DNA of 64,000 bases from Antedon mediterranea (taxonomy: Eukaryota > Animalia > Echinodermata): contig NC_092678.1 of NCBI RefSeq assembly GCF_964355755.1, positions 12,088,352-12,152,351 of the forward strand. The letters are read 5' to 3'. Shown here piece by piece: positions 1,227 to 41,518 of this stretch (its first letter is position 1; each line of letters begins with the position of its first letter). Both the position numbers and the translations under genes were made by a program. Under the pieces are notes generated by a model. That model was not told where the DNA came from, did no database searches, and was given only the letters and a program-made list of their open reading frames with translations.

Positions 1227-1391
1227 TCATGATTTCATCAGGATGATAAGTTTGTAGGAGAGAAGAACAATTTGGTGCCACAAAACGGTACCAATACCAA
1301 ACGCAAAGCACCACAACCACTGGTCTAAGTCAAGTGCTTCACAACCAAAACCATAGTTACTGAATTGGATAATTAACAATTGACAAAAAAT
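1227..1391 (-). CDS. PMCA-like last coding exon (TM9-TM10, stop)
   Basis: IFCQLLIIQFSNYGFGCEALDLDQWLWCFAFGIGTVLWHQIVLLSYKLIILMKS*; TGA at 1227-1229. Confidence 0.85.
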   Translation of the reverse strand: MFCQLLIIQFSNYGFGCEALDLDQWLWCFAFGIGTVLWHQIVLLSYKLIILMKS

Positions 1392-4300
1392 CTGAAAAGA
1401 AAAGTCAACATTATTTGTAAAAATGCTAAAATTAACAAACAAATCAAGTGACAATTATTCTACTGCAGTTATTGTTGCAGCAACTACATTTGTTGGATTG
1501 ACATTTTTTTGGTATAAATTTATATATTTATGAGGCAGCCAATGCAATAAACAGTGTGTATGGTTACTTACTCCATCATGTCATGATTGGTCAAATTACT
1601 TGTGGTGCACTTTGGGCCATGGCTTATGTTGAGGCTTCATTTGAGGCTTAGGGAGTGGAGTTGAAAGGGAGTTACAACCCTGGAACTACTCTAGGTCAGG
1701 ATTGAACCCTGGAACTACTGTGGGTCAGGATTGAACCCTGGAACTACTGTGGGTCAGGATTGAACCTTGGAACTACTGTGGGTCAGGATTAAACCCTGGA
1801 ACTACTGTGGGTTCAGGATTGAACCCTGGAACTACTGTGGGTCACGATTGAACCCTGGAACTACTGTGGGTCACGATTGAACCCTGGATTTTGGGATAGG
1901 AGGCAAGCATGTTAACCACCAAGCTAAGCTCAGTTGACATACAAATAATGATAGGAAAAGAGATTCAGTGTTGATTGTGATATCATCAATTATTAAATTT
2001 ACATTTTTAAAACCATACAGCAAGATATCAGACTTAATGATGACCAACAAATATATAACATTTTGATGGCAGTAAGAAAGAATAGAGTTATATGCATCCT
2101 GAATTTGTTTTCCTACGCTCAAAGAGTTATTATAAAAAAAAATTCTCACCTCGCCTACGTATACCAGTGATCTCATCTGCAAAAGACCATCATATACCTG
2201 CTGCTGACTGTGAACTTTGCGTTCATTCAATTGATTAAAAATTTGCATTAAGATAAAGACATTGAAAACCATAGTCATATGTTGAGTAGGAAATGTAGAT
2301 GGACTTCGTTCTTGGCCATCATCAATGTCAAAGAAGTCGGCACCTAGAAATAGATTCTTATAATTAGAACATTAAAAACATAATACTGTTCTTCAATAAT
2401 TAAACACCTAGTGATCAGTAGAAGTTTTATGGTGTACATACACATATTTGTTGGTACCTAAACTACTCAGCTGGTCTACCTGTCAATGAAATACAAACAA
2501 TACTATTCAATTGTTGTAAATCTATTAATAAATTTATGCTTTTATATACTTTTGAAGAAAAAAAATCATAATTACATGCAATGATGTACTGTTTTAGAAC
2601 ATACAGTAGATAGAGACACATGTACAAAATCAAACCATAAATAATTGTAATAATCTGAATTGAATTAATTATTAAGAAATGTGTGTAACTACTTTTCTCA
2701 ATCACAGTGACAACAGTTTTTCAAATGTACATAGTCTTTGTTGTGCAACAGCACAGTTTATTTCATTGAAATTGTTAAGTGTTATAAGCATACAAATAAA
2801 ATATAATTTATGATAAACTAATAAACCGAAAAAAATAAAGAACCAAAGTTTGAGTACCGTGAAGGCTAATTCATGTAAAAAAAAGAAAAATTATAATGGG
2901 AGTCTTACCTTTATATATGAAGACAAGAATGACAGCTAATTGGTAAATAAAATGAGAAATAGTTGTAACAACAAACAAAGGTGAAACTATGTGATTATCT
3001 GAACCAGCAGCTTTGTATTTCAAGATGTGACGTGTTGGTTTATCAGCCAATAAGATGATAGATACATTAACTAATAAATATGACCACAATACTTGGATGG
3101 CTCTGATTGGGCTATTCTACAAAAACAAATTTTAAAAAAATATTTAAAATTTCTTATTTATTATACAGTAAAGCATAAAAGATATATTAACCACCTAAAA
3201 CATATAATTAAAAATATTGAGTTTGTAATATATAGTATACAACAATATTGGGTCAGGTGGCTACGAGTGGTTACACAAGGGGTTCCGCAATGATTTTTCT
3301 GGAGGTATAACAAGTTTTAAGGCAACCTGAAGTAGATAATACTTTAACAGTAAAGACATTCACATTAGAATTGCATACCAACAGAAGAATTCAAATGGTG
3401 AATGAAGCAATGGTGTATGAACATTATTAATTAAACAGTACAGTATAAATTAAACAGTACAAAATTAAACAGTACAGTATAAATTAAACAGTACAGTATA
3501 AATTAAACAGTACAGTATTAATTAAACAGTACAGTATAAATTAAACAGTACAGTATTAATTAAACAGTACAGTATTAATTAAACAGTACAGTATTAATTA
3601 AACAGTACAGTATTAATTAAACAGTACAGTATTAATTAAACAGTACACTCTACACACTGACTTTGTCGTGAGCGGTTGTGTTTACTCGGACCTCTCTCTA
3701 GGCCTCAAAAGTACTCTGGCAGTCTAGGCTATACCGGGGCAAACAGAATTTTTAACCACTTCGCATTGGTGGCTCAGGGGCACTCCCTAAGCCTAAGTAA
3801 AACAACGAAACCAATTGGTGGATTAATGGCCTTTTAATTGCGGTTTACTCTTCGCATCGTAGTACTTCAACTACACAACGAAGCCATTTGGTGGATTATC
3901 AACGCTTTGTTAGTCTACGGTATCAGCAAGGTAAGCGTATTGACTTCTCACACCTGAAACCAGGAAAAAATGTACACAACCAAAGATTAACATTTTCCGA
4001 CGAAGCCTTTTGGTGGATAACTTTTCTGTTATCTTATCGGATGAATCGTTTTTTGATGTTTCTATTTTCACTTTTAACATTAACTGTATCGGTATTTTAT
4101 ATACCATTGGGTTGCTGAATTCTTGGAATTCCATTTGATTGAATTGTGGATACGCTTACAATTGTATTTTGTAACGTGGACGGATACAGACGTGCTCAAC
4201 GCGAGCTATTTTTCGAGCGACGCGATATTTTTGCTGGACAGATACGGCATACAGGTAACCTTCCAATATGACTTTTAAGTTTTAGTATGGCTTCCTTTAT

Positions 4301-7300: not shown

Positions 7301-10300
7301 CACCTTATTTATGCAATCGTTTTATTAGAATTTCAGACAGTCATAATTACAATACTAGGGGATGCAATTTTAATTTTAGAATCCCAACTATCAAGCCAAT
7401 GGCACATGTGACCTTTTTTTACAATGCTATTAAAGAATGGAATAATTTACCAATTAACATTAAGGAATCACAAACTGATTGTTGTTTTAAAAGTAAAGTT
7501 AAAAAGTATCTACAGGAACGTTCACTAGCTCTAGAAACTATTTAATTAGCGCTTCTTCTTTTTTCGATTGTCCTTTTTTGCTGTTTTTTGTAATTTTTAT
7601 ATGTTGCATTGTTTGTCTTTTTTGCTGTTCTTTCAAAGGACCTCATTGGAAACAAGTCCGTAGAGGACTTTTATGAGTTATCCTTGGCATCCTTGTTTTA
7701 TTTTGGTATTTTTATATTTGCCAATTTTAATTGTATGTCTGTGATATTTTATGTACTGATGCCGAAATAAATCAAATCAAATCAATCAAATATTAATTAA
7801 ACAGTACAGTATTAATTAAACAGAATAGTATTAATTAAACAGTACAGTATTAATTAACAGTACAGTATTAATCAAACAGTACAGTATTAATTAAACAGTG
7901 GGTGAGACCATTTCAAGTCGGTGAGACCATATCGACTAATTAGATGGTTTTTATCAATCTTTGATCATCACACTATTATCTCAGGAAATCGGAAATAAAC
8001 TATATAAATATAACCCTCACAGTGCGCTGACAATGGTTGCAAAAGTAAAAACACTAAATATCTCAACAAGTCTATAATCAAAAGAATACAAAAATCTACT
8101 TACTGAAAAAGTACAAGCTCCAATAAAGGCAACAAGTGATGTTATCATACCCCTGACTAACAGAGATTGCACGAACTTGACAACACCATCCCAGATATTG
8201 CGCCCCCACATGATGGCCTGTCGAATACTATAAATACTATCATCTTTTAATATGACGTCTGCAGCCGTTTTAGCTTCTACAGAACCAATATTTCCCTAAA
8301 CAAAAACAAACAATTTCAAAATGAGTAGAGAATTTACTATATAACTATCGTGACATACAAAATTGTTAAATCAGTAATTAAAATGCTTAAAATCACGTAA
8401 ATCCGATGAAAATGTCTAGAAAAATTAATTCTTATTTCATAAAAAAAGAAATGAGGTGGGCTTACAAGAGCAATGCCTAAATCAGCTTCTGCTAGGGTAT
8501 CCTCGTCCCCTATGTAGCGTCCAGTGACTGCAACTAGTTGCGGTTGAAGATTCTTTGGAGCTGCAGATATGCCTTTAGCAAGTACTTGTTTGTCGTCTGG
8601 ATGGGCCCCACCTAGTACACCTAGCGATGGCCATGTCTTGTGAAATTCATCATCTTTAATCTAAATAATAATTAATAATAACAATCACAATTTATTTTTT
8701 AAATCTATCATCTAATATCCTTTTCCAATCTGCCTAAAGTATTACAACTTTTAACAAGTTGTAACCAGGTTTGCTCTCCTGATTTATTAAACGTCTTCAT
8801 ACATACATACATACAGTAAAAAATATCTGGAGAAAAGCGTAGTTGCACGCTATTTGATTATGATTGGTCAATTATAATACTATAGCATTACACATGCACT
8901 CAGGGCAACAACTTGGGACATCTTAGAACAAAACACAGGCATCTCATCTTCGCACTATGTAAACCTGGTTTAATACAAGTTTTTACAAGTTGAATTTTGC
9001 AGGTGTGAAAAGGGTATAAGAAATGAAACCTTTTATAATCTATGCAATTGCTTACCAATTGAGATTCATCCCCATACATAATAGATGAAGCAGATGGTGA
9101 AGTCTGGAAATAAAACATGAGAAACTTTAAATAAATAGGGCACACATACTCTACATACTATACAAAACAAAATATTCTGAATACCTCACAAACAAACAAC
9201 GCAACTCAATGTTTTTTTGCTATGTTGATGAGGAGGAGGTACTAAAAGTTATTGAATCTCTCGATTCAAACAAAGCCTCCGGATTTGATGACATTTCAGC
9301 TAAAGTTGTAAAGGAAGTAAAATACAATATTTTAAAGCCGCTGACATATATTTTTAATTTATCACTTCAAACTGGACTAATACCAGGGAAGTTGAAAATT
9401 TCCAAAGTAGTTCCCATACATAAAAAAGGGGACCGCCATTTGGCCTCAAACTATCGTCCCATATCGCTGTTGCCCATTTTTTCGAAAGTTTTTGAAAAGA
9501 TTATCCATAATCAATTATACAATTATCTTACAAAATGTAAAGTGTTAAGCAACAATCAATATGGATTTAGAAACAAACACTCAACTTCTCATGCTATGAT
9601 CGACTTGGTCCATAAAATATTAAATGCATTTGAAAAAAAGGAATATGCACTTACTACCTTTATGGATTTGTCAAAAGCGTTTGACATTATCGATCACAGT
9701 ATTCTGTTGAGCAAATTGGCGCATTATGGTATAAGAGGCATCGTTTTAATGTGGTTTAGAAACTATTTAAGTGGCCGCAAACAATATGTTTATGCCAACG
9801 GTAGATCATCATGTTTAAAAGACACCAATATAGGGGTGCCACAGGGTTCTGTTTTAGGACCACTTTTGTTTTTAATTTACATCAATGATATAAGTCGAGC
9901 AAGTAGTAAAATAGATATAATTAGTTTTGCTGACGACACAACTTGTATAACAAGGGGAGATGACCCTACAATGTTAAACCATACTATGAATATTGAACTA
10001 GAAAAAATAAACGTATGGCTTAAAGCAAATAAGCTGTTACTGAATGTCAGCAAAACTAATTACGTTGTTTTTAGAACTAGCCAAAAGAACTTTGACAAAA
10101 ACCAGTTTAAAATAAAAATGAATAATGTGTTATTACATAGAAAAGAAAATGTGACATTTCTAGGTGTAATGTTAAACGAAAATCTTAACTGGAAACATCA
10201 CATACATACAGCTTATTAGGAAAAAAATGTCTAGGGCAATTGGTATACTTTTAAAAGTAAGAGAATTCTTTCCTCATAAAGTCCGTATTAGTCTTTATAA

Positions 10301-13300
10301 CACCTTAGTATTACCTCACCTTCAGTATGGTAACTTAATATGGGGAAATACATACAAGAGCACGTTAGAAGTAATACTAAAACTCCAAAAGAGAGCTGTA
10401 AAATGCATTACCTTCTCTAAATCCAGACAAGCCTCAGAGCCACTGTTTAAGAAACTAAAAATATTAAACGTTTATGATATTTACAAAGTAAACGTCATAG
10501 GATTTATGGCAAACGTAAAATTCAATGAATTACCACATCACATTTTAAATATTTTTAATTACTGTGACAGTATTAGGCCTACTCATAACCTCAGAACAGA
10601 AACTGAATTCGAAATTCCCTTCACAAGACTAACTTGCAGTCAACAGTTTATACACATATATGGACCAAAATTGTGGAAAGAATTCACTTGTAATGGTGGT
10701 AATAAACCGGTTATCTTAAAGAAACAAAATAAATGTATAAAAAAACAGGTTAAAAAATACTTTTTATCACTATATGCTGATTAACAACACCTTTGTTTAT
10801 TTAAGTTCTATATACTTGTTCTTATGTAAAAGGGTCCTACAAAAAAACGAAGCTATAGCTTTTTTATGCAGGATCCCTGTTCTCAGTTGTACTGTAATTA
10901 TGATGTACTGTAATTGATGACTAAATAAATGTGGAATAAAGTAAAGTAAATTTAAGAAGAGTTTTCTAAGAGCAGACACTATAGAAGACTATAGATCCGG
11001 AAATCTCTAGAAAACTCAGATTGGATCTAAAAAACTTGGATATATCTGAGTTTTCTAGACACCCATGATGCCAAACATCCAACAAAGTCACATTCACACT
11101 ACATTCAAGAGTAATTACCTTCAGTCTATCTCTCACACCTTTAACAAAGTCACACTCCCACACCTTTAACAAAGTCACATTCACACTACATTCAAAAATT
11201 AAAATTTACCATTTCAATTCCACGGATTTTATGATTAAATACTTCAGAATCCAGGCAGAGATCTTTGGGACTGCGGATGATTCCAGACTCTGCAGCTACA
11301 GCGCCTGCTGTCTGGAGGTCATCTCCTGTTACCATGGTAATCTTGATTCCACTACGCTGTAAATCCTTAACATACTTAGCAGCCTTAAAAAAAATTAAAA
11401 TATATTTAAAAAAGGTAAAGTATTATATTTTCCCCTTGATTTAAATGTCACATAATAAAATTTAAAAAAAAGGCTGACTTTATTTAATCTATATGTTTCA
11501 TGTTTTTGGGGACCCTACACCAATATACATTTACTATACTTACTTCTTTAAAGCAAGAATTATTTTATCAGGGATATTATTTTACTAATGAATGGGAATA
11601 TATTTCACTAAATGGGCAAGACAATTAATGCTTGCAAAAAAGGTTAGATGTGCTAGATATTAGATTTGAAAGATTTTTTGCAAGGAGATTAGGAGAAAAA
11701 CAATTTTTGTTACCAAGTCTGTCTGTCACCACAATGTTAAAATCACTAGCCTTCAAATAATATACAGTATTGTTTACATACTGTATGTCTTCCAATACCG
11801 GATCCTATGAAAACTGGAAACTTTACCAAACCCTGACTTTTCATGAGGTCCAAAAGATCCAATATTTTTTTAGCATTTAAAAAATGCTTAAGAATACTAG
11901 AGTTTCTGGCAAACTTGATTAAGCCAGACAGTATATGCACATTGTATTTTGTAATGAAGTTCTTTTATAACATAATAGGCAACTGTGCTATTTTATTTAG
12001 GATATAATGTTGTTTTTCCTACCTTTGGACGAACACGATCTGAAATCCCTAACAAAGCAACGCAAGTCAGCTTTGATAAGACATCATCCTCACGAGACAA
12101 ATCCACGCTGTCTTCTGTCTGATCGATGGCCATATCTCGATATGCTAAACATATCGTGCGAAGCTTCGATTTAGACATCTCTGTTATTTGCGATGCAAAG
12201 TGTGATTGAGTATCAGTGTCCAGAGGGCAGGCTACACCATCTGTGTCCAGGTAAAATGAGCACCTTTTAAGATAATAAAATATTAATTACATAGTTATAT
12301 CTGTATAGTAAAATCTAATTTTTAAACCAATTTAACAGTTATTCTAAATTTACATATTTTGATTTGATTTGGACAACATTTATTTAAGCAATAGATAATA
12401 ACAATTTAATAACTTTTACTGTAGTAATGTATGTTTGTTTCTATGTATACATCTGAGGCAGTCAATGAATAGTTACTTTTTTTTACTTGGAATGATTACT
12501 CAAACAAATCTCGATACTGTTAATAATCAGATAAACAAAATGTATTTCCTGCAGTAACTGCAGTAGATTAATTTTTACATGGTCCCTCCATATACATAAA
12601 AAGCTGCAAACCTTTTAAGTACTCGCTCCGCTGCTCCTTTGCAATAAACTCTGTTTCTGTTCAATTCTTCCTTACCAATCACACAACACATCATCTTCCT
12701 ACTTGTGTTAAAAGGATATACACGCATCACCTTCTCCTCTGGATTCGAATCCCGCAATGCTCTATAATGCCCACCAAGGATCTCCACAAGCTCCAGCAGA
12801 GCGCAGTCTATTCTGTCTCCAATATGTTGAAGTATACCATGATTCTCGACAGATATCTAGTTTGTGAATAAAGAAGAATATGATCAACGTTTAATGGTTC
12901 AACCAGCTTCTGTGATGCTAATATACTACTAACACTCGCGGAAAATACAGTAAAAATTCATTAATGAATTAACTTAAGTTAAAATGTTTTGAGAAACATT
13001 TATTTAAATCTGCACAAACATAAGCTATTTTTTATAGTGCGATAAATACAGTAAATAAGTCATAAATTGTAAAGCCCTTCTTTCAACAGCTTATAAAGTA
13101 AAACCTTAATTAAGGACTATCTCATTCAGGGAACACCCTAGAGGGACACTTAAATGTGAAATGAGGGGAATATACTTAAAATTATCCGTCCATATTAACC
13201 CTTTCACTGCGTATACCCGGTACTACCGGGTATAAACAGACGTCGTGAAATACGTATACCCGGTAATACCGGGTATGGGCAAAACAATGATTTAATCGTA

Positions 13301-16300
13301 TTTGCCTATAATATATAGCACCCTCTGTATTTTTTCGATGAACTTGGATATTTTTGCAAGTCATTAAAAATTTTTTCCAGCAAAAAAAATGGCCCTCTAT
13401 AGTTGTATTATTGTCTTGAAAAAATGCGCCCTCTATAGTTATATTATATATAGTATAGTATATAATAGTATTTCTATCTTGGAAAGATGTGTTGAGTAGC
13501 GTAATGGCGGCCATTTTGAAAGTAACACAAATTTACCAGCTCCAATAGGGCAACATGGTGTTTATCACAACACGCAAAAAAAAAAATTCTGAAAAAATAG
13601 TTAGTTTTTGTACTATAGGGAATTTTTCGAAAATGTCAATATTTTCACGATTTTGCCCCAAAACTTTGATTTGTGCATAATTTTTATAAAACAATAAAAA
13701 TAATTCAATTTGTTTAAATATTTTTATTTGTTATACGTATCTTCGTCAATATCCAGTTCGAAAAACGTATTCCATAAGAATTTCTTATAGAAAATATAGT
13801 TTTTATCATTGATTTGATAAAAAACACGAAATCCAAAATACCTGTAATGACGTCACATGACGTCATCAATATGCAAATTACTTTTTTTTTAATACCTAAC
13901 TGTAGACTAACCCTTTGCCCATCACACACCACAAAAATAATTACACAATTATCTCAATTAGTATTTTTTTGCAATTAATTAAAATATAATATGTTTTACG
14001 CACAGAGGTGGGAATAACGCTTCGCAGTGAAAGGGTTAAACGGACACATTAAAATAGGAATTCTACTGTAGTGTATTCAACTAAAAAAAACATCTTATGA
14101 AAAGACATACATTTTATTTTATAATTAAAAATAGATATATTTACTTCTATAATTTGAGCTGTGTAATCTGTATTCACTGCCATTCCTTCCAGAAGTAAAT
14201 TGGTCACTTCTGAAGAATGCGTCATTGATTTCAATCTTGTGTTAAGATTAGTTTGTTTATCCGGCCAGCGAACATGAAACAACTCATTAAATAAAAAGAT
14301 TCCCTCAACACGCATGTAGTTTTCAGTGACCACTCCCGTTTTGTTTGTTAAAAGTGTGGTAATATTACCCATAATTCCATAGGCTTCATTGTTACGGACA
14401 AATATTTGATCATGTCGAATCTCCTATATAATTAAAAATTATTTTTTTAAATAATAAAAAAAAATTTGTTAATATATTATATCACAGTACTGTGTAATAA
14501 TTATTGTAGCATGATGTATAATCAAATAAATTGCACCTAGATATGAACAATTACAACACAAATTAATATAAACAAGAAAACACAATTGTTTCAAAATGCT
14601 TGGTAAATTATATATGTATGCATGTGGCAGGTCGTTTTATTCAAAGAAAAAATAAACGTCCCTGGGAGTTTATTCAAGGGGGCGTTTATTCAAAACGGGT
14701 GTGCAGTACTATGGGATCATTTATTCCAAGGTGGTGTGTATTCAAAGCGGGGTGTTTATTTGAATAAATACGGTAAATATGATAACAAAAACAAATCTTA
14801 CATGAGCTGACTGTTTGCAGATGTGCTGGTAGATGGAAGGTAAAGATGATGGGTAGGTGATTGTAAACACAGTGATGGTGACAATGATCAGGTCTACTAT
14901 ATCCTTCAGGTATGTAATATCCCAGCTCTCATCATCAGCAATGAATGTTTGGTAGCAATAGTTAATAATCAGAACCAGACCAATAATTGTACACAGGGCA
15001 ATAGCTGGCAATTACAAATCAATAATTGTATTAAATTAAATTAGAAATGTTTTCCGACTTATCTGCATAAATTATTACAACTTTGATCTCCCTACTTAGT
15101 ACATTTTCTTACACGCATAGGCGAACTGTGAGAAATCTCGGGAGAAAGCATAGTTGTGAGCTATTTGATTGGTCAGTTTAACACCAGGGCAATACAAGCG
15201 TGCATTAACAACTCGGAACAAAATACAGGTCTCTCATCAGGAACTTAAGAATAATTGAAAAAACAGCATTTGCCAGTTGTTCTTGGGTGGCATTCAAATT
15301 TATGGACTTTAATCCTTAAAACCTGTGTGCTTGATGGCTAGGGATAGATTCAAATTTGTCTCATTTTTTTGAGAAGAATTTTAAAATTTGATTAAAAAAA
15401 ATGTTGGAATACAAAATAACTATAAATAAACCATGCTCATCACATTTGTTTGGTAAAATAAAAAATTCCAACAAAATGTTCTGACAAATATTCAGTATTA
15501 ATGATTGTGATTACCTGCTATTAACACATAGTTTGAGATGATTTCCAAATCTTGCGTCAGGACACTTTTTTTCTCCTTCTTGTTCCTAAGCCGTTGGCTA
15601 CCAAGTGGTGAGTACACAGGAGGTGATGATTGTGTTGCAACCTCACTAGTGTTACCAGGCATATTTACATAAATATCATTGGCTGATCTTGCAATGTCTA
15701 AGAAAGTTATGAAAAATAATATAAATTCTTTTTGTATTTAATCCCTCCATTTGAAGAGCATGGGTTATTGTCGGTTTATCCAGGTAAGTTAGGCACGACA
15801 TAGACTGAATGTTCTTATATGTTGGTAGTAGACATTGGGAAGAGAAAACAAAGAGAACAACTATCTTTTGATAATCTCAATTAATTTATTCTCTTCCTGA
15901 TTTAACATAATGTAGAAATCTGATATTTCCTCTTTTGGTTTATTTACTCAATGATGATAAAATTATGACGATGATAACACATTTAAAAATTAATAATGAT
16001 ATTTTAAAAACGACACTTAAATCTATCAAATGGCATGTGAATGTTTAGATTTTATGGTTTAAATTAAAACTGGTCCTAAAGTTTTAATATTCTTAATTAA
16101 TACATGCAATTATAATTCTTAACATAATTGATTCTCATAATCAGCTTCATGTCTTTGTATTTTATAATATGGCACCTAAAGCTTGGCTTCCAATACAAGG
16201 ATATAGGCCCACCATTAGTAATTTGACCAATCATGATACGATGGATCTTCCAAAATCTCGCTTATGATTGGACAACACACCTGCATTGCGTCTACGCCGT

Positions 16301-19300
16301 TGCATTGTATAGTGGGAACCAAGCTTTACATTATAAATGCCAATCGATTTTCTTCCAAATGAAATCTCTATATAATAAATAGTATTTTATGATATGCATG
16401 CATTATTAACATCACAGGTATTTGTGTGTATGTTCACTAACTGTATTCATAAACAGATGGTCTCTCATTTTGGTTAATAAATAATTAATTTTATAAACAA
16501 AGCCAACCACCTCAATCACCTTTAATTTAATAATTGAAAACACATGCAAAAAAATAAATTACAATATAATATTGTATGAAATCATTCAATATTTAAATGA
16601 GAATAGTGACTACCTACTGCACAACAATTAAAGTTAAATTCTTTTTATAATAACAAAAATATGAATATTGAAAAACAAATTGTAAAATTATTCATATCAT
16701 AATCAAGAACTATAGAATTAAAAAGAAATGATAATAGTCTTATAACAAAATGCTCAAACAAAATTTGTGCAAATATGAATTAAACAAAAATAAACATATT
16801 AATGACACCAACTACTGTATAGTGTGTATAACACTTTGTAAATTTAAGTAATCTATAAATAAAAGGCAAACACAAAAAGTGTCCACTATGCACTCCGCTG
16901 TGTGACATCCGATCCGTCTGAATTTGGCACCAAATATCTTGCTATGGAGATGGAACGAAAAGTTTGAAAACCAAATATTTAATGAATTATGTCTAAAAAT
17001 AATTTTCAAAATCAAATGTGGAATTTCCAGAGGCCGTCATTCAATACCGTTCAGAGAGATGAGTCGATAGCTTATAAGGCACAATTTTCAAGTCAAAGAA
17101 AAGTGGTAGATTAAATTTTAATTCACTTCCATTTGTATTAATAAACATTTATAGGATGATTTATGTAGTCTTTATAAATAAATGTTATATTATATTTCTA
17201 AATTTGAAGTGTATATTTATTTGTTTTCTTTCTCCATTTTAATCTTAATGTGTGTAAATGTTGTTATGACACATTCAGGAGCACTCAGCTCAGCAGATAC
17301 GTGATGGAAATGAAAATTGCACCTATTCATTCTAGTAGTGGAAAACATTGGATTTGTGTGACTAATTTGTATAGTGAAAAATAGGCTTTAGTCTGGATAA
17401 AGTAATTGATAATCTGGTGTCATTAATATATAAGTTAATAAACGTGCATGTATGATCTTACCCCCTGAGTCAGGTGCATCAGAAGAGCGTGCAAATTGAT
17501 AATTAGGAGTAAAAGCACCATTAATGACTCCTCCTTGCGGAGTCTTACCAAGCTTAGTGTGGACACCAACTTGCAGTACCACCATTCGTGCATGTCCATC
17601 AATTATTTTTGATCCTACAAAGATAAAGATGTTTATTGTATCCCTTTGACACTGCCAATTGATGTCAGACAGGGAAAGTATAGTAATACCATAAATCTTC
17701 AAATTATTCTTTGATTGTTTTTTAGGGTGGGTTACTATTAGAAAGGCGTTACTATTAGAGTAGTGGGTTACTATTACTAATCGTAAATTAGGCACTTGAA
17801 AATAGTAACCCACCCCAACTATTCGGGTCAGCAAATCATAGCAAAATAATAAAACAGTACGAATAAACAAATTTGTTTGAACTCTAACTTTATTTTAAAA
17901 ACTCAAAAACACTCAATCCTCCCCCACTCCCGAGATCAACATGCATTATCTCCTTATTTTCAAAATATGGCTGCATCATAAACGACCAGTCTTCATAATG
18001 TCATTTTGTCAATAGTTTTTGTGACTCTAATAATATCCCCATGGGTTACTATTATAGTAGTGGGTTATTATTATAGATTGACTTATAAGATGGTGGGTGG
18101 GTTACTATTAGAAGGTGGGTTACTATTAGAAGGTGGGTTACTATTAGAAGGTGGTTTACTATTAGAAGGTGGGTTACTATTAGAAGGTGGTTTACTATTA
18201 GAAGGTGGGTTACTATTAGAAGGTGGTTTACTATTAGAAGATGGGTTACTATTAGAAGGTGGGTTACTATTAGAAGGTGGGTTACTATTAGAAGGTGGGT
18301 TACTATTAGAAGGTGGGTTACTATTAGAAGGTGGGTTACTATTAGAAGGTGGGTTACTATTAGAAGGTGGGTTACTATTAGAAGGTGGGTTACTATTAGA
18401 AGGTGGTTTACTATTAGAAGGGGGTTACTATTGTGTGTATGTTACTATTAGAAGATTTAGGGTAACATGGGTTGCTTTCTTGAATACAGTGTTCAGAATT
18501 AGCATACTTGTTCTATTTGAATGGTAAGCATTCAGTATGTACTACTAAAGCCAACCTTCCACTAAGCCAATCTGAAACCATCAGGTTAATATGCGTGCAT
18601 GAATACAGATTTGGAAGATAGAAACATGGATATGCATGCTCTTCGATATGCACGAACACATTTTCCTAGTGGAAAATCGGCTTTAATGTACATACCTAAC
18701 ACTAAACAGTAAATAATGTACATACAATACAGTACACAATGTAGTACATAACAGTAAATAATGTACATACAGTACAGTACACAATGTAGTACATAACAGA
18801 AAATAATGTACATACAGTACAGTACACAATGTAGTACATAACAGTAAATAATGTACATACAGTACAGTACACAATGTAGTACATAACAGTAAATAATGTA
18901 CATACAATACAGTACACAATGTAGTACATAACAGTAAATAATGTACATACAGTACAGTACACAATGTAGTACATAACAGTAAATAATGTACATACAATAC
19001 AGTACACAATGTAGTACATAACAGAAAATAATGTACATACAGTACAGTACACAATGTAGTACAAAACAGTAAATAATGTACATACAATACAGTACACAAT
19101 GTAGTACATAACAGTAAATAATGTACATACAATACAGTACACAATGTAGTACATAACAGAAAATAATGTACATACAATACAGTACACAATGTAGTACATA
19201 ACAGTAAATAATGTACATACAATACAGTACACAATGTAGTACATAACAGTAAATAATGTACATACAATACAGTACACAATGTAGTACATAACAGAAAATA

Positions 19301-22300
19301 ATGTACATACAATACAGTACACAATGTAGTACATAACAGAAAATAATGTACATACAGTACAGTACACAATGTAGTACATAACAGTAAATAATGTACATAC
19401 AATACAGTACACAATGTAGTACATAACAGTAAATAATGTACATACAATACAGTACACAATGTAGTACAAAACAGAACATTCTCAAATCAAATGCACCCAA
19501 TATTGTAAGTCTTATGTGCAATGTATGCACATCGGTTTTGTGTCTCACTAAACATGTTTATTTATCTGAAGCTCAGAGAGGACAGTTTAACTCAAGTACA
19601 AAATCTTTAAATCATTAGAAGTGCTTCACTACATCAATTAACATACAATGTCAATGGTTTAAATAATAATGTAGAAATAGATGAAATTTAAAATGAACAT
19701 TGAATGACTGTTCGTAATAAGATTTCCCATGTGAATAAAAAATGTTAAACATAAAAATACAGAGAAATGAAATTGTACACCCTGAAATGTTTACTTTAAA
19801 TAAATACCAAAATGTTTAAAAATTACCCAATTTTCATGCTAAATGTCATGTTTACAGTATTATAGAAATATCCCACAACACACGTTGAGTCACATGCAGA
19901 CATTTTGGCCAATAAGCAATAAGTATACATACATTTACTGATATTGAGTTGAAGCTTATTGGCCGAAACAAATTCTTGTCAATGTCATTTTTAGTAAAGA
20001 AAAAAAGTATTGAGTTTAATGAACTGTATTAAAAAGAAGTAAAAATACAAATACTGCAATCATATGTTAATTTCTTTTCAAAATAAACGATGATATTAAT
20101 GATGCTAACCTTTGTAGCAATAATTAGTTAAAGATGTATTGTCCTCCAAAAACATGAAAAAATGAAAGATTAATAAAATCAGATTTTAGATTTTGTAGTT
20201 TCACCAAAGTAAATCAGGAAAAAATAATGTTTTCACTTATAAAATGACAAAATAAATTGTTAAATTTAACCAAAACCAATTAGCTGGCAGCCAATTTGAC
20301 AATTTTTTGCTTTAAATTAGTTTTTTTCACTTAAGTAAATATTTTGTTTTTGGGGTCCATTTTTTGGTTGAAGTGAATAACTATTATGTGACATTAAAGT
20401 GGCAAATAAAAAAAAAAAATCCAAACAAACATTTTTTCAGGGGGACAATATCACAAAATGTTAAAATAGTTGCGCTGGTAGTCTGGGGTTACTTTTAAGA
20501 TTAAACATAAATATTAATGATATACCTTTGAGTAAGATAGCATCTCCATCTGCTGATTTGTCAACCACGGAATCACGTCTTGTCACACGGTATTCATTCA
20601 CTTTTACGTTACTACTATAGATAATTAGTCCATCAGCTGGAACTGTACTCCCTGAAAACAACAGTTTGTATTTAGTCAGCCTGACTAAGTTCAATTTTCA
20701 ACAATTGTTAACTACAAGTTCCAGTCTCTAAACAATGCAGTCATTTTCTTTAAAGCTTAAACATTGAATAAGCATAAACAGTTTTTAATTCTTAATCACT
20801 CCCCACCCTCCTCAAATTCTGAGGGAAAAAATATATTTTAACAAACTCTTCAATATTATAGTAAAACGTCTACCGCTTGGCCAGTCCGTGTGTGGGGTAC
20901 GTTTTACTATTACCCCTTTCACACCAAAAGCAAAACTCCGGAGACACCCCGGATTTGACGTCCCGCTGTTTGGTGTGAAAGATAAAATCAAGCAACTCCG
21001 GAGTTTAAAACTGCGGGGTTGAACAGCTGAACATTCTCCGGAGAGCGAACTGCGGGGACACCCCGGTGTTTTGGTGTGAAAGGTACCAACATCAAACTCC
21101 GGAGTGTTTCGGGTCAAAAGGTCATCCTCACACGATCACTCATTGCTTTAGTTTTATTTCAAAATACTTTAAATATTTGTACAAAATATATAGCGGGTTT
21201 AAAAAATAATTAGTAGTATCAATAAAACATTATATTACTTCTGAGACTTTTGAAAGTAATTATTAAATTAAAAATATTGTTAATTAAAATTATTCTAATG
21301 ATCGTCGCTATGTAAACAAACAAAATAGAGGGCGACATTTACAATTTTATTTTATAAACCCCGGTGTTGCTAGGTTGGTGTGAAAGGGGTATCTCCGGAG
21401 TTTCTCGACGTTTTGAATGGTCATAAACCCCGGGGTGTCTCCGGAGACACTCCGGGGTTTTGGTGTGAAAGGGGTATTTGTTCGCGGTTTGCATATATTC
21501 TATGCTACAATTTATCCTTTGGATTTTTGAAGTTATATTTAGATCATGTACAAAAATTGTATTCATTAGTGACCACTTTAGGAAATTTACCGCAAGATTT
21601 CTGTATGCCTAAAATGCTCTAAAACGCCAGAAAGTTCGGGGCCATCAGCCCCTAGACCGCTGGTGCTGCCATGGGTTTAAATATGTTCTAATTCAAACTT
21701 CTTCAGCTACCAGAGGAGCATAATATTTTCCAATACCGAATACAACCCGATACTTGAGCATCATCATACCTACTGGGCTAAACTCACACACAAGGCATTG
21801 GTACATTTTTAAGCAAGGTGGGACTATACTTATCATACAGTAATATTGTTTACAATTTATTTGTGTAAATTTAATGCATTCATAGTAGTAGTACATACCA
21901 CATTTAACATAAATAATATCACCAACAACAATCTCGTCTCTTGGCTGATACGCTCCAGCGCTTCCACGTATAGTGTAAACCTGCGCCATTGAAAATAGTT
22001 TGCGCTTCCTTTGGGTTATGGCATACTGTTCTTCAAGAAAATAATTGCTGACAACTTGAAACATAAAGATGAAGATGGCGAGTAAGCATAAACAAATTGC
22101 TCCGACCCAGCCAGCCCTCTTGCGTTCTTCCAATTCTAAATACAAGGAAACTGTAAAGTAAAATGTATTTGATTATTAAAGGATTTCATAATCCTACATC
22201 AGGATAATAGTTTGGAATAGTTGTACATTCATTTTGAGGTACTATACTGTATTTTTTTAAAAGGTTTTCCACAAGCCCCTTAAGCACTTTGGTAGCTCGA

Positions 22301-25300
22301 TATGTGTATTATTACTGTAGCTCTGGTTTGTTAAAAATATATCCCTTTATCAACATTACTTTGAGGTGTAATATACAACATTCGAGATCCTCTGAAATAA
22401 TCATATTTTTTCGCACGGACTAGTAAATACAGATTCTGAGAGAAAAATAAAATGTAATACCATCAAGGATGCATTCAGAACCAAAAAAAAGAATATGCAG
22501 TACTGTACCTGTATATATTTGTTAAATAAATACATTTTTTTAAAATCATAAGTGAGAAATTTAATTTCAAATCCATATCCATATTCAATTTGCTGTATTT
22601 TTCATTTTAATGCTAATGCACTTTTACACTTTTAAGGCTATCTTAGGGTTTACAGTAGGTTAAGCTTCTGTGAACATGACCCTGATCCTAAGGATAATCA
22701 TTATCAGTAGGTGCAGAAGTACATTATTGCCAATCCACTTTGCATCTCATTCTCAGACACCATTCCAGTCCCCACATTTTAATTGAGGATCTTGCTGTGA
22801 ATATTCTTTTTTTAATATTTATATGATTATTCACTTATTGTAGATTTTTTAAAAAGGTATAAAGTTTTAAATTATAGTTTGTTAATTATACTTACATTTA
22901 ATGACATCACTTTCAGCAAAAGACAAACCAAAAGAGACAACCGCAAGGACCATAATCAACACGAGACGCAACTCCTTTAGCAGCTGTGACTTGATGATAT
23001 TCCATAAGCTGCCATGGACACCCGCTTCCTCTACCTCATACAGGGAGTTATTCCCATATAGTTCTTGACGTTTCAACACTTCTTCTTCTACAAGATGGCT
23101 AATTCCTATAAGAAGATTAAACAATTTTTTATTAATTTTAATTAAAAATTTTTCTTTAGGATTTATTATAATCCACAATGAAAATAATGCAAACAAAATG
23201 AACATGAAATTAAAAATTACTATTTAAAAAAAAAAGTCAGATTTACTTCATGTGCACTCGGAGCCTACATGATTCACTCACACAATGTGATTCTCGGAAT
23301 CATCCTGCATTTCCGCAGCCATACAAAATTATCGGTTAATTTTTTACCCAACGCAACTCGTCCTTCAGGTTGAAGGTTTATTTATCTGATAATTATCTGA
23401 TTTTTATCGATTAATTTTTGGCTGCAGAAAACAGCCTTAAAATAATAATACGATCAAAATAAAATTCTATCCTTATATATATTCAACTTTAATTATAAAT
23501 ATTAAAATAAACTGTATAAACTAGATGGTACGCTCGCGACCATCTAGGTCGTGCCCACAGATGGTTCTCGAATACATACTAATTTCAGCGTTAAAAAACT
23601 GGCGATTTCAAATGTACGTACCGCAGGACAATAATACATGTCGTTTACAGGAACGAATAAATAGACACTGTGATTTATGTACTAAAATTAGCACCCTGGG
23701 AATTACTTCCGAAAGAGAAACTTGTCACAAAATGAGACAATTGTTTAAGTCAAATTAAAACAAACTTAATTTGTGTTTTATATGTAACATTAGGGTTGAG
23801 GTATGGGGAAGAGGATGGCTGCAAAGAGGAACAATTTTTAAATATATTCTTTATCCATTTAGTAATGAAATATTAATTGTTTTCATGTTTTACAAATAAT
23901 ATACCACTAAACACAGTAAAACATTGCGATGTAATACTTTGTTGAAACTATCACCGTCCTAGTCGATTGAAAAGTACAGTACGTGTAACGGTACATCACT
24001 ACGACGTGTATATGTTTATATAATGTAAAACAATTTGTGAAAACCACCTCTATTCAGGGAAAATCACAAATTCGATTTAATCGTCAACAAATATTAAATT
24101 ATCTAACTCAACTTAATTAGTAGGCCTAATGGTTTTCAATTGTTTCTTAGAGCTAATTCATACTTAAGTTGGTTTGTGATGCACTGTAGGCCTATCCTCT
24201 ACTGGCTTTACAATGCTACTCATGCCAGTGAGGGAAGGGTAATGATGTGGGTGGTTTAACTGCAATAATAAAGATTTGTACATAAATATACGGCGACTGA
24301 AAACGCTAGCTCATTATCCGTTTAAGAAAATCTATATCCAACCTCTGCAGCACAGAATGGATCGAATTTCTGTTATGAGTATACAGTACTTGCCTTTACG
24401 ACGCCTGAGGGAATAGACACTTGTGGAACAAAGATTGGAATGTTCCATTCATCGCAAATCAATACATTTGTATAAACGTATATTAAATCTATCAAAATAG
24501 TATTTTTTAAAGAAAATCGGCCTGTCTTCAACATTATGATGCTGTACTCGAGCTGTTCAACCGGTTTTCAGCCATTAAAAACAATTATCGTAGGAGGAGA
24601 TAGGAAAATGCGAAGCATCCTCGTATTATTGTCTGTGGGTATTTTTCAAGATGGACATCCATCAGACAGTGTATACCACGATCGAAAAACACCCCTATTT
24701 GGGGCAAATCGTTGAACCTAAATTCGTTTTAATTGTCAATAACTAATTATCGAACTCAATTTAATTAGTAAACAGGGTTACATCAGGTGGTTAAAATCAG
24801 TATCGAAAGTACGAACCAACTTTATATACCATCGAGTAAACATTCTAGAAATAACGCACGATTTACCGAATTTTGCCTTTACGTAAATTTATATATAGAT
24901 ACAGTAATATAGGAATACAAAATAACATTGAGTTTAGCCTGTAAAGTTGACATTTGATAGAAAAAATAGGGGAGGGGGTCGAAGAGAGAGAGAACATGGA
25001 TAAAAATCTGGGACATAGGAAAATGAATACCAGATCAAATATGTTGTTGTGATACAGTACCTTTACTTAATAAGCCTTGAGCTATTATAGTTTCGGTTTA
25101 CAGTTTTATTTCTTTATTATTGTTTTAATACTATTTCCTATATGGGAAAAAACAAACAAATATGATATGAGATCTCCGTTGCTTGTTCGCACATGTAATG
25201 TAATGGTCGTGTGCCACTCCTCCTGGGTAGAAAATTTGAGATAAACCAGCTGTGTAAAAAACCTACTAACATTGCTGGATTTTTCAAATTAGAACACAAG

Positions 25301-40300: not shown

Positions 40301-41067
40301 ATGATAACATTAACAGCACTGAATCACAAGGAAATAAATTGATTACATTTCTGCTTATAACTTTATTGTTATTCTACTCCTTAACAAGTCTATTAGGAAG
40401 TGCCATTGGTAACCAAGTTTGATACGACAAACATGGTTAGCTTTTATTAATTTATTATACAACAATTTGTTATTTCTTTTCATTTGGTATGTTTTCAACT
40501 AAATATACAAAAAAAAAATTAAAAGTTAATTGCACATATTAAATACATTAGAACAGATTCTAGATCTTTGAATGTTTGAGTTGAAAAGTTAGAGTTATAT
40601 TATAAAGGATTTTTGTCATCAATTTGTTTGTATAATTTTTTTTAGTAAATTTATAATTCATTGAAACAAAATGCATCAATATTTTATAATAGGATTTTCT
40701 TTTTTGATGATCCAACAAATAATTTGAATGAAACAAAAAACTTGTTTCATTCTCTAGCTTTTGCTGGTTGATCAACTCAGCTTAGTCTTGTGAGTTCATG
40801 TTTATTTGGATTATCACAAAAGAAAACCATATAAAATATTGAGTGTAACAGATCCAGATGAACCTTTTTTCACTAATAATGCATCAATTTACCATCATCC
40901 TCATGTGTCTGCAAGAGCCTCAAGAGTTCCTTCTGATTTCCAAACTTTTCCTTGATAAATGCGACAGCCTCGCCTTGGCCATTCCTCTCAACAATACTAG
41001 CAAGATCATCAAGGGTTAGGGTCAATCCGGGCCGAGTAGCTAAATCTATCTCGTCTGCCATTATCAT
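1227..41067 (-). CDS. ATP2B-like: Divergent plasma-membrane Ca2+-ATPase (P2B/PMCA)-like protein, spliced gene model, 16 coding exons plus 1 candidate, ~1064 aa; predicted catalytically inactive
   Basis: Exons 40893-41067, 22896-23105, 21899-22150, 20526-20651, 17462-17614, 15515-15697, 14802-15004, 14145-14423, 12612-12856, 12023-12263, 11210-11383, 8466-8660, 8104-8295, 2909-3116, 2150-2343 and 1227-1391 are all bounded by GT..AG with matching phases. They sum to 3195 nt with no internal stop. Colinear with PMCA motifs (VVGDI, PADG, KKEKKSVL, LRTICLAYRD, MVTGD, MWGRN, FFDIDDG, QWLW). Confidence 0.9.
1676..1888. repeat. 29-bp minisatellite, ~7 copies
   Basis: Unit gaaccctggaactactgtgggtcaggatt. 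Confidence 0.95.
2150..2343 (-). CDS. PMCA-like coding exon 15 (TM8)
   Basis: ADFFDIDDG...PTQHMTMVFNVFILMQIFNQLNERKVH; gtgag donor. Confidence 0.9.
2909..3116 (-). CDS. PMCA-like coding exon 14 (TM6-TM7)
   Basis: NSPIRAIQVLWSYLLVNVSIILLADKP...HFIYQLAVILVFIYKG vs PMCA DSPLKAVQMLWVNLIMDT; 208 nt. Confidence 0.9.
3425..3647. repeat. 19-bp minisatellite (left part, split by a LINE)
   Basis: Unit aattaaacagtacagtatt; resumes at 7791. Confidence 0.92.
3648..7790 (+). mobile_element. Near full-length non-LTR retrotransposon (CR1/L2 group), APE endonuclease + RT
   Basis: ORF 4287-5714 has APE motifs (LNVRS, YRPP, GDFN, SDH). ORF 5755-7545 has RT motifs (QSGFR, KAFD, GVPQGS, YADD). 3' tail aaataaatcaaatcaaatcaatcaaa; flanked both sides by the 19-bp array. 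Confidence 0.93.
4287..7545 (+). pseudogene. LINE ORF2 (EN-RT) broken by one frameshift near 5705
   Basis: Removing one A in gtagaaagaagttaac joins the two ORFs (VEEVNKNNPNKLWKCLKDLGY). Confidence 0.85.
7791..7898. repeat. 19-bp minisatellite (right part)
   Basis: Same unit as 3425-3647. Confidence 0.92.
8104..8295 (-). CDS. PMCA-like coding exon 13 (end of P domain, TM5)
   Basis: GNIGSVEAKTAADVILKDDSIYSIRQAIMWGRNIWDGVVKFVQSLLVRGMITSLVAFIGACTFS; 192 nt. Confidence 0.9.
8466..8660 (-). CDS. PMCA-like coding exon 12 (P domain hinge)
   Basis: Hand translation IKDDEFHKTWPSLGVLGGAHPDDKQVLAKGI...LVAVTGRYIGDEDTLAEADLGIAL vs PMCA [24 protein letters not shown]; 195 nt. Confidence 0.9.
9056..9103 (-). 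CDS. Candidate 48-nt in-frame exon of the PMCA-like gene (TSPSASSIMYGDESQL)
   Basis: Strong acceptor ttttatttccag and donor gtaagc; phase 0-0 like the flanking exons; no stop. No homology support. Confidence 0.6.
9160..10950 (+). mobile_element. 5'-truncated LINE (CR1/L2 group), RT domain, frameshift near 10215
   Basis: ORFs 9209-10219 (NYRPISLLP, QYGFR, DLSKAFD, GVPQGS, FADD) and 10227-10784; tail aataaagtaaagtaaa. Boundaries approximate. Confidence 0.9.
11210..11383 (-). CDS. PMCA-like coding exon 11 (P domain)
   Basis: Hand translation AAKYVKDLQRSGIKITMVTGDDLQTAGAVAAESGII...FNHKIRGIEM; 174 nt, phase 0-0. Confidence 0.9.
12023..12263 (-). CDS. PMCA-like coding exon 10 (N domain)
   Basis: KLRTICLAYRD...LTCVALLGISDRVRPK; 241 nt, phase 2-0. 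Confidence 0.9.
12612..12856 (-). CDS. PMCA-like coding exon 9 (N domain)
   Basis: HIGDRIDCALL...VYPFNTSRKMM...YCKGAAERVLK; 245 nt, phase 0-2. Confidence 0.9.
13199..14035. mobile_element. Non-autonomous piggyBac-type element
   Basis: Perfect TIR CCCTTTCACTGCG...CGCAGTGAAAGGG with TTAA on both sides (13195-13198, 14036-14039). Confidence 0.88.
14145..14423 (-). CDS. PMCA-like coding exon 8 (P domain, phosphorylation-site motif)
   Basis: EIRHDQIFVRNNEAYGIMGNITTLLTNKTGVVTENYMRV vs PMCA [24 protein letters not shown]; 279 nt, phase 0-0. Confidence 0.9.
14802..15004 (-). CDS. PMCA-like coding exon 7 (TM3-TM4)
   Basis: AIALCTIIGLVLIINY...IIVTITVFTITYPSSLPSI; cag acceptor, gtaaga donor. Confidence 0.88.
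15515..15697 (-). CDS. PMCA-like coding exon 6 (loop before TM3)
   Basis: Not in the ORF track; hand translation DIARSAND...NKKEKKSVLTQDLEIISNYVLIA matches PMCA KKEKSVLQGKL; 183 nt, phase 1-1. Confidence 0.85.
16177..16328. mobile_element. Small palindromic MITE
   Basis: taaagcttggcttcca...gtgggaaccaagcttta. Confidence 0.65.
17462..17614 (-). CDS. PMCA-like coding exon 5
   Basis: GSKIIDGHARMVVLQVGVHTKLG matches PMCA [23 protein letters not shown]. Two possible in-phase gtaaga donors (exon end 17462 or 17549). Confidence 0.82.
17687..18464. mobile_element. TA-flanked MITE (Tc1/pogo-like) with an internally expanded 18-bp repeat
   Basis: Ends taccataaatcttc / gaagatttagggta are inverted; the motif gtgggttactatta occurs in both orientations inside. 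Confidence 0.6.
18096..18432. repeat. 18-bp minisatellite, ~18 copies
   Basis: Unit ggtgggttactattagaa. Confidence 0.95.
18706..19470. repeat. 45-bp minisatellite, ~17 copies
   Basis: Unit acagtaaataatgtacatacaatacagtacacaatgtagtacata. Confidence 0.96.
20526..20651 (-). CDS. PMCA-like coding exon 4 (A domain, TGES loop degenerate)
   Basis: STVPADGLIIYSSNVKVNEYRVTRRDSVVDKSADGDAILLKG; 126 nt, phase 1-1. Confidence 0.9.
20912..21475. mobile_element. MITE, probably PIF/Harbinger group
   Basis: TIR ACCCCTTTCACACCAAAA...TTTTGGTGTGAAAGGGGT flanked by ATT/ATT (a TA duplication also fits); internal ggtgtgaaag and ctccggag repeats. Confidence 0.8.
21899..22150 (-). CDS. PMCA-like coding exon 3 (TM2, start of A domain)
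   Basis: AGWVGAICL...TIRG...DEIVVGDIIYVKCG; cag acceptor, gtatgt donor; 252 nt. Confidence 0.88.
22896..23105 (-). CDS. PMCA-like coding exon 2 (TM1)
   Basis: ISHLVEEEVLKRQELYGNN...LVLIMVLAVVSFGLSF; tag acceptor, gtaag donor; 210 nt, phase 1-1. Confidence 0.88.
25644..25924 (-). pseudogene. RPLP1: Processed pseudogene of 60S acidic ribosomal protein P1
   Basis: Hand translation MASTSELTCVDSALILLDDDVAITTEKINTLV [deletion/frameshift] ...LIRNVGSASAAPAVAA...KKEEESDDDM*FGLFD*. Intronless; Gly->TGA in the DMGFGLFD tail. Confidence 0.92.
25982..28085 (-). mobile_element. Decayed 5'-truncated LINE (CR1/L2 group)
   Basis: Fragmented ORFs with KPWMT, DFTKAFD, GVPQGTKLGP, YVNN (degenerate YxDD); many stops and frameshifts; attgaataaattgaataaa tail on the minus strand near 25985-26010. 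Confidence 0.88.
28688..28826. repeat. Degenerate ~48-57 bp tandem repeat, 3 copies
   Basis: aattcatgattacgttcttg...tgtactatgaccttctacc. Confidence 0.8.
29008..29810. repeat. 47/44-bp minisatellite, left arm
   Basis: Unit atgacacctctagtttgggctacagtagcaaacagcaataccatcgt; the 44-bp variant lacks aca. Confidence 0.96.
30619..34860 (+). pseudogene. Academ XPG-like/Cys8 coding region, 5'-deleted, interrupted and frameshifted
   Basis: ORFs 30619-31020, 33319-33741, 33708-34400, 34411-34860; excising 31010-33364 restores DCDNAKHVGQQIVQSM. Confidence 0.8.
31010..33359. mobile_element. Non-autonomous TIR element (hAT-like CAG...CTG ends) nested in the Academ
   Basis: CAGGCCCGTAGCCAGG...CCTGGCTACGGCCCTG with TGTAG duplicated (31005-31009, 33360-33364). 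Confidence 0.85.
36081..37325. repeat. 47/44-bp minisatellite, right arm
   Basis: Same unit as 29008-29810, resuming in register. Confidence 0.96.
37385..38517. mobile_element. Foldback/Mutator-like non-autonomous element
   Basis: ggacaactacccc arrays at left and their complement at right; 9-bp ATTTTTTTT duplicated at 37376-37384 and 38518-38526. Confidence 0.72.
40893..41067 (-). CDS. PMCA-like coding exon 1 (N-terminus)
   Basis: MIMADEIDLATRPGLTLTLDDLASIVERNGQGEAVAFIKEKFGNQKELLRLLQTHEDDG resembles the PMCA N-terminal segment. Donor G|gtaaat; an upstream acceptor at ~41100 implies a non-coding 5' exon. Confidence 0.8.
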
Positions 41068-41518
41068 TCACTTTTTATCTCATAGTGGATACTAAATGTC
41101 TGAAAAAGATCAAAATACATACATGGGCTTTATTTTTACTGTACTGTACTGTACAAGACATGCGGCACTTGTGCTACTGTTTTACTGAAAAATATTATGG
41201 ACTTGAATTACCAAGACGACAGGAAAAGGGCCACATAAGAGAGGGCGCAATATTTGTACTGGTTCATCAGGTTCCCGACGAAGGGGACCGTTTGCAACAG
41301 GGTTTGCGATAACAACACTGGAAACTAGTTTTTATTGATTCAAAAGCAGGACCCCTGTAGCGATGAGCTTAGCATCCAGTATATTTTGCCGCTACTAGTT
41401 TCACCCAGTCGTTTTTCACACTTGTGCTACCAAATCATCGAAAATATATTTGCTGTCAGTGTCACTATCATTATTATGTATGATGTAGCCTAGGCCTCTA
41501 GCTAGTAGGCTAGCCTAG

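Follow-up and report, generated by a model that had tools for sequence, protein, structure and literature searches.

What is left of an ion pump once its catalytic residues are gone? This question is raised by a gene on the minus strand of the genome of the feather star Antedon mediterranea, running from 41067 to 1227 in a stretch of 64,000 nucleotides (nt) of contig NC_092678.1 (the window, to which all coordinates refer). The gene encodes a relative of the plasma membrane calcium-transporting ATPases (PMCAs), and a first-pass annotation, made from the letters of the window, had proposed that it is intact and that its pump chemistry is lost. We find the gene to be open in two species and apparently under selection; its protein very probably cannot pump, and we lean toward a role as a regulator that would still bind nucleotide.

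Gene model and lost residues

As the first-pass annotation had it, 16 exons join in phase: assembled from a six-frame reading and a listing of splice sites, they gave an open frame of 1035 amino acids, and 15 of the 15 introns are GT-AG. However, one more coding exon, the 17th (48 nt, 9103-9056), had been overlooked. The proposed length of about 1064 amino acids is, by arithmetic, these 1035 plus the 29 of the long form of exon 5. Once exon 9103-9056 and the donor at 17462 are included, the window agrees letter for letter with two RefSeq proteins, XP_071960702 (1051 amino acids) and XP_071960700 (1080 amino acids), and no stops, frameshifts, or lost splice sites were found across the 17 exons. 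An untranslated exon upstream of exon 1 is suggested by an acceptor at 41099. When we queried with exon 8, two proteins were found among 29 candidates: an Antedon mediterranea protein (identical) and one from another feather star, Anneissia japonica (70% identical). RefSeq labels both as "plasma membrane calcium-transporting ATPase-like." Anneissia also has two forms, which differ by a 31-amino-acid insert at the position of the exon 5 junction. RefSeq also lists an X3 isoform (923 amino acids), whose last exon comes from the antisense strand of an intronic long interspersed nuclear element (LINE; about 6830, minus strand), and which therefore lacks M6 to M10 of the transmembrane helices (M1 to M10).

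The actuator (A), nucleotide-binding (N), and phosphorylation (P) domains and the 10 transmembrane segments that had been claimed are borne out by five Pfam P2-ATPase domains and by an AlphaFold2 model, built from a 45-sequence alignment, that predicts the full P-type fold (pLDDT 78, pTM 0.78). In a fold search with this predicted model, the 10 best solved matches were all P2B pumps (TM 0.78/0.87). PMCA (PDB 9gsd/9gsf and 6a69) was the best match by both sequence and fold (E = 2e-162), and the ESM Atlas yielded generic calcium-pump clusters only.

What defines a P-type ATPase is a single aspartate that becomes phosphorylated; without it, no phosphoenzyme forms, and hence there is no Post-Albers cycle. 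In both Antedon and Anneissia, this aspartate is replaced, as DKTGT has become NKTGV (N432; residue numbers follow the Antedon protein, P0001). TGES has become TRRD in Antedon and TGLD in Anneissia, so the actuator Glu is replaced. PEGL has become PSSL and PSFL, respectively. GDGTND has become GRYIGD in both feather stars, which replaces the first Asp and the Asn and retains the last Asp (D786). The first-pass annotation had reported four motifs lost in four exons, and those losses are real (exons 4, 7, 8, and 13), except that D786 is kept. Two further losses go beyond those four. First, the calcium site of human PMCA1 consists of E433, N891, and D895 (PMC6127144). The equivalents are S390, Y876, and N880 in Antedon, Anneissia retains an Asp at the last position only, and M6 has a two-residue deletion. 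Second, the calmodulin-binding tail is absent: the protein stops about 10 amino acids beyond M10, and Pfam did not find PF12424, the C-terminal domain of PMCA, in the crinoid protein, but did find it in a gar PMCA. Altogether, Antedon retains 0 of 8 catalytic and calcium positions, and Anneissia retains 1 of 8.

Because the phospho-Asp is gone and no phosphoenzyme should form, we are confident that the crinoid protein has no pumping cycle. A change from D to N at this site is a standard way to inactivate such enzymes (PMC13322241; PMC7858053). Could pumping persist nonetheless, either through changed chemistry or because RNA editing converts the Asn codon to one for Asp? The codon, AAC, is just one A-to-I change from Asp; K433, T434, G435, K758, and D786 are retained; and ERMA (TMEM94) has been claimed to be active without TGES and GDGxND (PMC13322241). 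But ERMA retains its Asp, and changing it from D to N abolishes transport (same source), and one edited codon would leave the Mg ligands, the actuator Glu, and the three calcium ligands still missing. We therefore give this idea almost no credence. We also considered a flippase, as PSSL resembles PISL, and set the idea aside, as the sequence and fold matches listed include no P4 protein.

Selection, transcripts, and relatives

The orthologue in Anneissia japonica is 74% identical over 1038 columns, and it has an open frame and nearly all of the motif losses, with NKTGV, GRYIGD, the Ser in M4, the Arg in M5, and the Tyr in M6 in common. When we simulated neutral point mutation to 76% identity, none of 300 runs was free of stops (mean of 18, minimum of 9). 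Furthermore, the replacements have been kept: of 232 positions that are invariant in 6 canonical animal PMCAs and changed in Antedon, 180 (78%) are identical in Anneissia, versus 367 of 544 variable positions (67%; P = 0.005, Fisher's test). Several helices are nearly invariant between the orthologues (25/28 for M5, 20/21 for M6, 18/19 for M8, and 20/22 for M10). By domain, identity is 87-91% for the A core, P1, and M5-6, and the N domain (67%) is among the lowest. Because replaced residues are more conserved than variable positions, helices are nearly invariant, and simulated drift yields stops, we read the protein as having undergone one large change, with the new state then held.

The size of that change might instead suggest a duplicate under relaxed constraint that is turning into a pseudogene: its stem branch is very long, and its identity to canonical PMCA is just 33%. 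But the frames are open in two species, as drift in our simulation never left them; the branches after the species split are short (0.15-0.2); the new residues are conserved; and alternative splicing affects one and the same junction in the two species. We consider such decay very improbable.

As for transcripts, we compared 4 of the 11 listed sequencing runs, none of which is recorded as RNA, with positions 1100-21000 of the window. In run X9, from a relative (organism B), a 4188-nt contig covers exons 17, 10, 9, and 8 in order; it was judged to be spliced by its layout, as the library type is not on record. Exons 17 and 10 lie 1010 nt apart in this contig; we would expect 1011 if the 48-nt exon is included and 963 if it is skipped. 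The contig continues unspliced beyond the stop, to 1100, and hence adds no calmodulin tail. In run X5 (organism A, RNA by guess), an equal contig depth (81.8) at 1224 and at 3048 is consistent with a spliced contig. Contigs from run X6 read through introns. Overall, the open orthologue with its common losses, the simulations, the conserved replacements, and the spliced contig bear out the earlier suggestion of selection that preserves the fold while discarding catalysis, and they support a real gene that is apparently not decaying neutrally.

We considered the best 150 of 20033 matches, as representatives at 50% identity: after the Anneissia protein (1740 bits), the next match is a canonical PMCA (534 bits). 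Among the matches listed, we did not find an orthologue of the window's protein (paralogue A) beyond the two feather stars. Across 168 aligned PMCA-like proteins, 159 keep the phospho-Asp, 4 are gapped, and 5 have it replaced: both orthologues, another protein of Anneissia (NKTGV), one from Nematostella vectensis (NKTGV), and one from a leech (EKTGI). A profile built from these five stretches found 154 proteins, of which 120 were listed and 113 were new. Of the 113, 8 lack DKTG: the Antedon copy of a second paralogue (B), a longer Nematostella model, five partial proteins, and one rotifer protein.

Paralogue B (P0237 / P0108) is present in both feather stars, with 77% identity between the species and 29% identity to paralogue A. 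It has NKTGV, the Tyr in M6, the short tail, and (in the Antedon copy) T-G-R for T-G-D in common with A, and it carries RPRNQ in M4. The Antedon copy sits on a contig equal in length (26,055,566) to the one that carries A. In Anneissia, the P domain and M5 of the B model appear to have been spliced wrongly.

The NKTGV protein of Nematostella (P0238 / P0081) is of another type. Since it retains PEGL and the M6 calcium ligands, it may still bind calcium, although it would be catalytically dead. Its 1274-amino-acid model has two N-domain matches and so would have a duplicated nucleotide-binding domain. Two related partial proteins (P0248 and P0250) have KKHG at the phosphorylation site. Other degenerate PMCA-like proteins (P0317, P0102, P0077, P0209, P0127, and P0133) come from a rotifer (NKTGL), a leech (EKTGI), a whitefly, a fungus gnat, and two more sources; those of the whitefly and the fungus gnat retain the Asp and have altered TGES and GDGxND motifs.

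In quick IQ-TREE runs, with support from the Shimodaira-Hasegawa-like approximate likelihood ratio test (SH-aLRT), all of the Asp-less proteins in the tree fall inside the animal PMCA clade (99). With A or B as the sole long branch, each still lies within that clade, at no fixed place. Judged from the sequence, the crinoid protein is of PMCA descent. Two further groupings in the tree, each supported at 99, pair A with B and place the partial proteins beside those of Nematostella. The approximately unbiased (AU) test rejected a tree with A next to vertebrate PMCA and apart from B (P = 0.0001) and narrowly rejected one with A and B together next to vertebrate PMCA (P = 0.033); both tests are subject to long-branch pull, and canonical echinoderm or cnidarian PMCAs were not knowingly among the sequences. 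A and B likely stem from one origin.

Whether the Nematostella type shares that origin is more doubtful. It joins A and B in a weak long-branch group (86), which the tool flagged, and eight derived residues are common to all three. We also asked if shared derived residues single out Nematostella as special kin, but its total with paralogue A (27) is no higher than those of the leech (28) or a fly (24). It is conceivable, if rather speculative, that the NKTGV proteins of the Nematostella type and the two crinoid paralogues are what remains of a single ancient animal family of PMCA pseudo-pumps, so far undescribed, in which full-length P-type folds would have become ATP-binding, calcium-blind regulators or ATP-gated conduits.

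Possible roles of a probably non-pumping protein

Some parts of the pump have been kept. At the nucleotide and phosphate site, 14 of 14 positions are retained in both orthologues (F547, K571-G-A, R615, D655, T679-G-D, K758, K433-T-G, and D786), and even at 29% identity, paralogue B also retains the F, KGA, R, and TGD. (These residues and the eight catalytic and calcium positions, with roles as in SERCA, were selected after the alignment had been inspected.) In M5, R847 aligns without gaps to the M5 lysine of the wild-type non-gastric H,K-ATPase (7x20). Identity to the gar PMCA is 12/19 in M8 and 11/22 in M10, compared with 3/24 in each of M2 and M3, and the gar PMCA itself has 12-14/19 and 10-14/22 identity in M8 and M10 to sandfly or nematode PMCAs. 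Neuroplastin binds PMCA at M10 and the linker between M8 and M9 (PMC6127144).

Our preferred interpretation, which we hold with modest confidence, is that the protein is a nucleotide-binding, non-pumping pseudo-ATPase regulator that probably also binds a subunit like basigin or neuroplastin. An old duplicate of PMCA would have lost catalysis and been duplicated again, into paralogues A and B, with the new residues then being fixed. The retained nucleotide pocket, in which an Arg replaces the Asp that binds Mg, would keep ATP bound without turnover; the M5 arginine would occupy the empty ion site and lock one conformation; and the retained surface of M8 and M10 would recruit an immunoglobulin (Ig)-type subunit or other partners. 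Recruiting these partners could tune or place a working calcium pump.

Several observations weigh against this interpretation. Paralogue A has lost the nucleotide-contacting Arg of the R-x-x-P-x-D-K motif, and the residues that were retained may serve folding only. The register of M5 is one off in the alignment to the 7x23 mutant. The linker between M8 and M9 is weakly kept (5/18 identical to gar, versus 12-15/18 among canonical pumps), and the helix residue counts are small. In paralogue B, replaced residues do not show excess conservation (71% versus 75%, with an Anneissia model that is apparently faulty in the P domain and M5). Finally, the binding of ATP and that of a subunit are predictions from sequence alone.

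If the nucleotide site were conserved for folding, without regulatory binding, the dead pump could be a plain structural scaffold or a trafficking anchor. The low conservation of the N domain (67% versus 87-91%), the lost nucleotide-contact Arg, and TMEM94, which has no nucleotide at this site in six structures (PMC12134183), are all consistent with this. Nevertheless, we think it unlikely, given that all of the nucleotide and phosphate positions persist in both orthologues and that so many of them persist in paralogue B.

The membrane helices raise another possibility: a broken pump could have become a channel or passive carrier, perhaps gated by ATP binding, whose substrate would be an anion or a lipid rather than calcium. 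M5, M6, and M8 are nearly invariant with their new residues; acidic ligands were lost, and arginines appeared close to the site, in M5 of A and in M4 of B; M6 has its deletion; and TMEM94 holds a lipid among M3, M4, M5, and M7 (PMC12134183). But a simpler expectation is that the Tyr and the Arg block the site, and the best structural match, to an E1 state, reflects the predicted model and not the state of the protein. This seems quite unlikely to us. Among the three roles that the first-pass annotation had suggested, the sequence appears to favor a scaffold or a nucleotide sensor over a calcium conduit.

Features of the window

The exons are listed in Table 1, together with other sequences in the window. 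The first-pass annotation had noted that every passenger in the introns is broken. This is true of those examined, which are three LINE pieces, a transposon-like stretch, and a copy of a ribosomal protein gene; "every" covers only these. They are a weak control for the intact gene because their ages are unknown, and the orthologue is the strong control. Minisatellite arrays in the introns and downstream yield long spurious reading frames. A neighboring DED-NACHT-LRR immune-receptor gene has an in-frame stop at about 51055, in the repeat region of its long exon, after which the frame runs for 81 codons; we read it as a truncated or pseudogenised allele.

Table 1. Coding exons of the candidate pseudo-pump gene and other features of the window
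Feature	Position	Strand	Content
Exon 1	40893..41067	-	Coding, amino acids 1-58
Exon 2	22896..23105	-	Includes M1
Exon 3	21899..22150	-	M2 and beginning of the A-domain core
Exon 4	20526..20651	-	A domain; TGES replaced by T236-R-R-D (codon at the Glu position, 20577-20575)
Exon 5	17462..17614	-	Two donors: 17549 (short) and 17462 (long, +29 amino acids)
Exon 6	15515..15697	-	M2-M3 loop and beginning of M3
Exon 7	14802..15004	-	M3-M4; PEGL replaced by P389-S-S-L (calcium ligand Glu to Ser, 14849-14847)
Exon 8	14145..14423	-	Phosphorylation site is N432-K-T-G-V (codon AAC, 14345-14343)
Exon 9	12612..12856	-	N domain; F547 and K571-G-A retained
Exon 10	12023..12263	-	End of N domain; R615 and D655 retained
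Exon 11	11210..11383	-	P domain; T679-G-D retained
Exon 12	9056..9103	-	48 nt; P-domain insert
Exon 13	8466..8660	-	K758 retained; GDGTND replaced by G781-R-Y-I-G-D
Exon 14	8104..8295	-	M5 with R847 (about 8154-8152)
Exon 15	2909..3116	-	M6 (calcium ligands Asn to Y876 and Asp to N880) and M7
Exon 16	2150..2343	-	M8 and M8-9 linker
Exon 17	1227..1391	-	M9-M10 and stop
LINE, near complete	4272-7542	+	Endonuclease and reverse transcriptase; interrupted by one frame change
LINE piece	9131-10781	+	Split over frames
LINE piece	26096-28089	-	Split over frames
Transposon-like stretch	30619-34857	+	Broken; no Pfam match
60S acidic ribosomal protein copy	25924-25640	-	Processed; frameshift and stop
Minisatellite arrays	1680-1880, 18055-18450, 18590-19490		
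DED-NACHT-LRR gene	56706-50810	-	DED, E = 9e-8; NACHT, E = 2e-21

Comparison with known systems

The first-pass annotation knew of no animal family of PMCA pseudo-enzymes, and we found no description of a PMCA-derived pseudo-pump in the open-access literature (subscription papers are outside this coverage). Under the terms that we used, no such family was found in the available part of a 2023 review of P-type enigmas (PMC10654040). The available part of a study of coral PMCA1-3 mentions no motif loss (PMC8382919); its supplements, which are outside our coverage, may list the Nematostella gene. An Asp-less crinoid derivative of PMCA is, apparently, undescribed.

Like PMCA itself (ATP2B1-4), the crinoid protein has the same domain order, lies inside the animal PMCA clade, and is as conserved in M8 and M10 as canonical pumps are among themselves. 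Unlike PMCA, it has replaced the phospho-Asp, the TGES Glu, GDGxND, and the calcium ligands, and it has no calmodulin tail and just 33% identity.

Of the precedents, TMEM94 comes closest in kind. Whether it is an ATPase is disputed: no such activity was found by one group (PMC12134183), and another, which calls it ERMA, reports Asp-dependent Mg transport (PMC13322241). Both it and the crinoid protein have an animal P-type architecture without TGES and GDGxND. But TMEM94 retains the Asp (DKQGI) and has an occluded pocket, whereas the crinoid protein, a PMCA derivative, lacks the Asp and retains the pocket residues. The fold matches listed for the crinoid model do not include TMEM94, and the nearest relatives of the crinoid protein are PMCAs.

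Another P-type module with lost catalytic residues is the P4-ATPase-guanylate cyclase of alveolates (P4GC-beta, in Cryptosporidium), for which the Asp or the actuator Glu is lost in some lineages and a supporting role has been proposed (PMC13466520). That module is a flippase-type domain fused to a cyclase, whereas the crinoid protein is free-standing and of the P2B type: it has PSSL or PSFL rather than PISL, it stops after M10, and it has no cyclase domain.

The basic residue in M5 recalls the H,K-ATPases, which have a lysine at that position (with the caveat about register, as this is from the 7x20 alignment). The idea of a built-in counter-ion has been reviewed (PMC10654040). In contrast to pumps with a built-in cation in M5 (H,K-ATPases, P1B-2, P3A, and P4A), the crinoid protein would have no phosphoenzyme for this residue to discharge.

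Overall, of the few degenerate P-type cases that we found in print, TMEM94 keeps the Asp, and the others are modules attached to a second enzyme. In feather stars, by contrast, selection appears to hold an Asp-less derivative of PMCA that is full-length and free-standing, with two paralogues, and similar Asp-less proteins occur in a rotifer, a leech, and a lineage of sea anemones. These proteins offer a natural test of what the fold of a pump does without pumping, with defined residues to examine. Automatic "PMCA-like" names conceal non-pumps, which bears on counts of calcium pumps in calcifying animals. If the crinoid and Nematostella-type proteins do belong to one ancient family, then they would be a P-type counterpart of SUR or CFTR among the ABC proteins.

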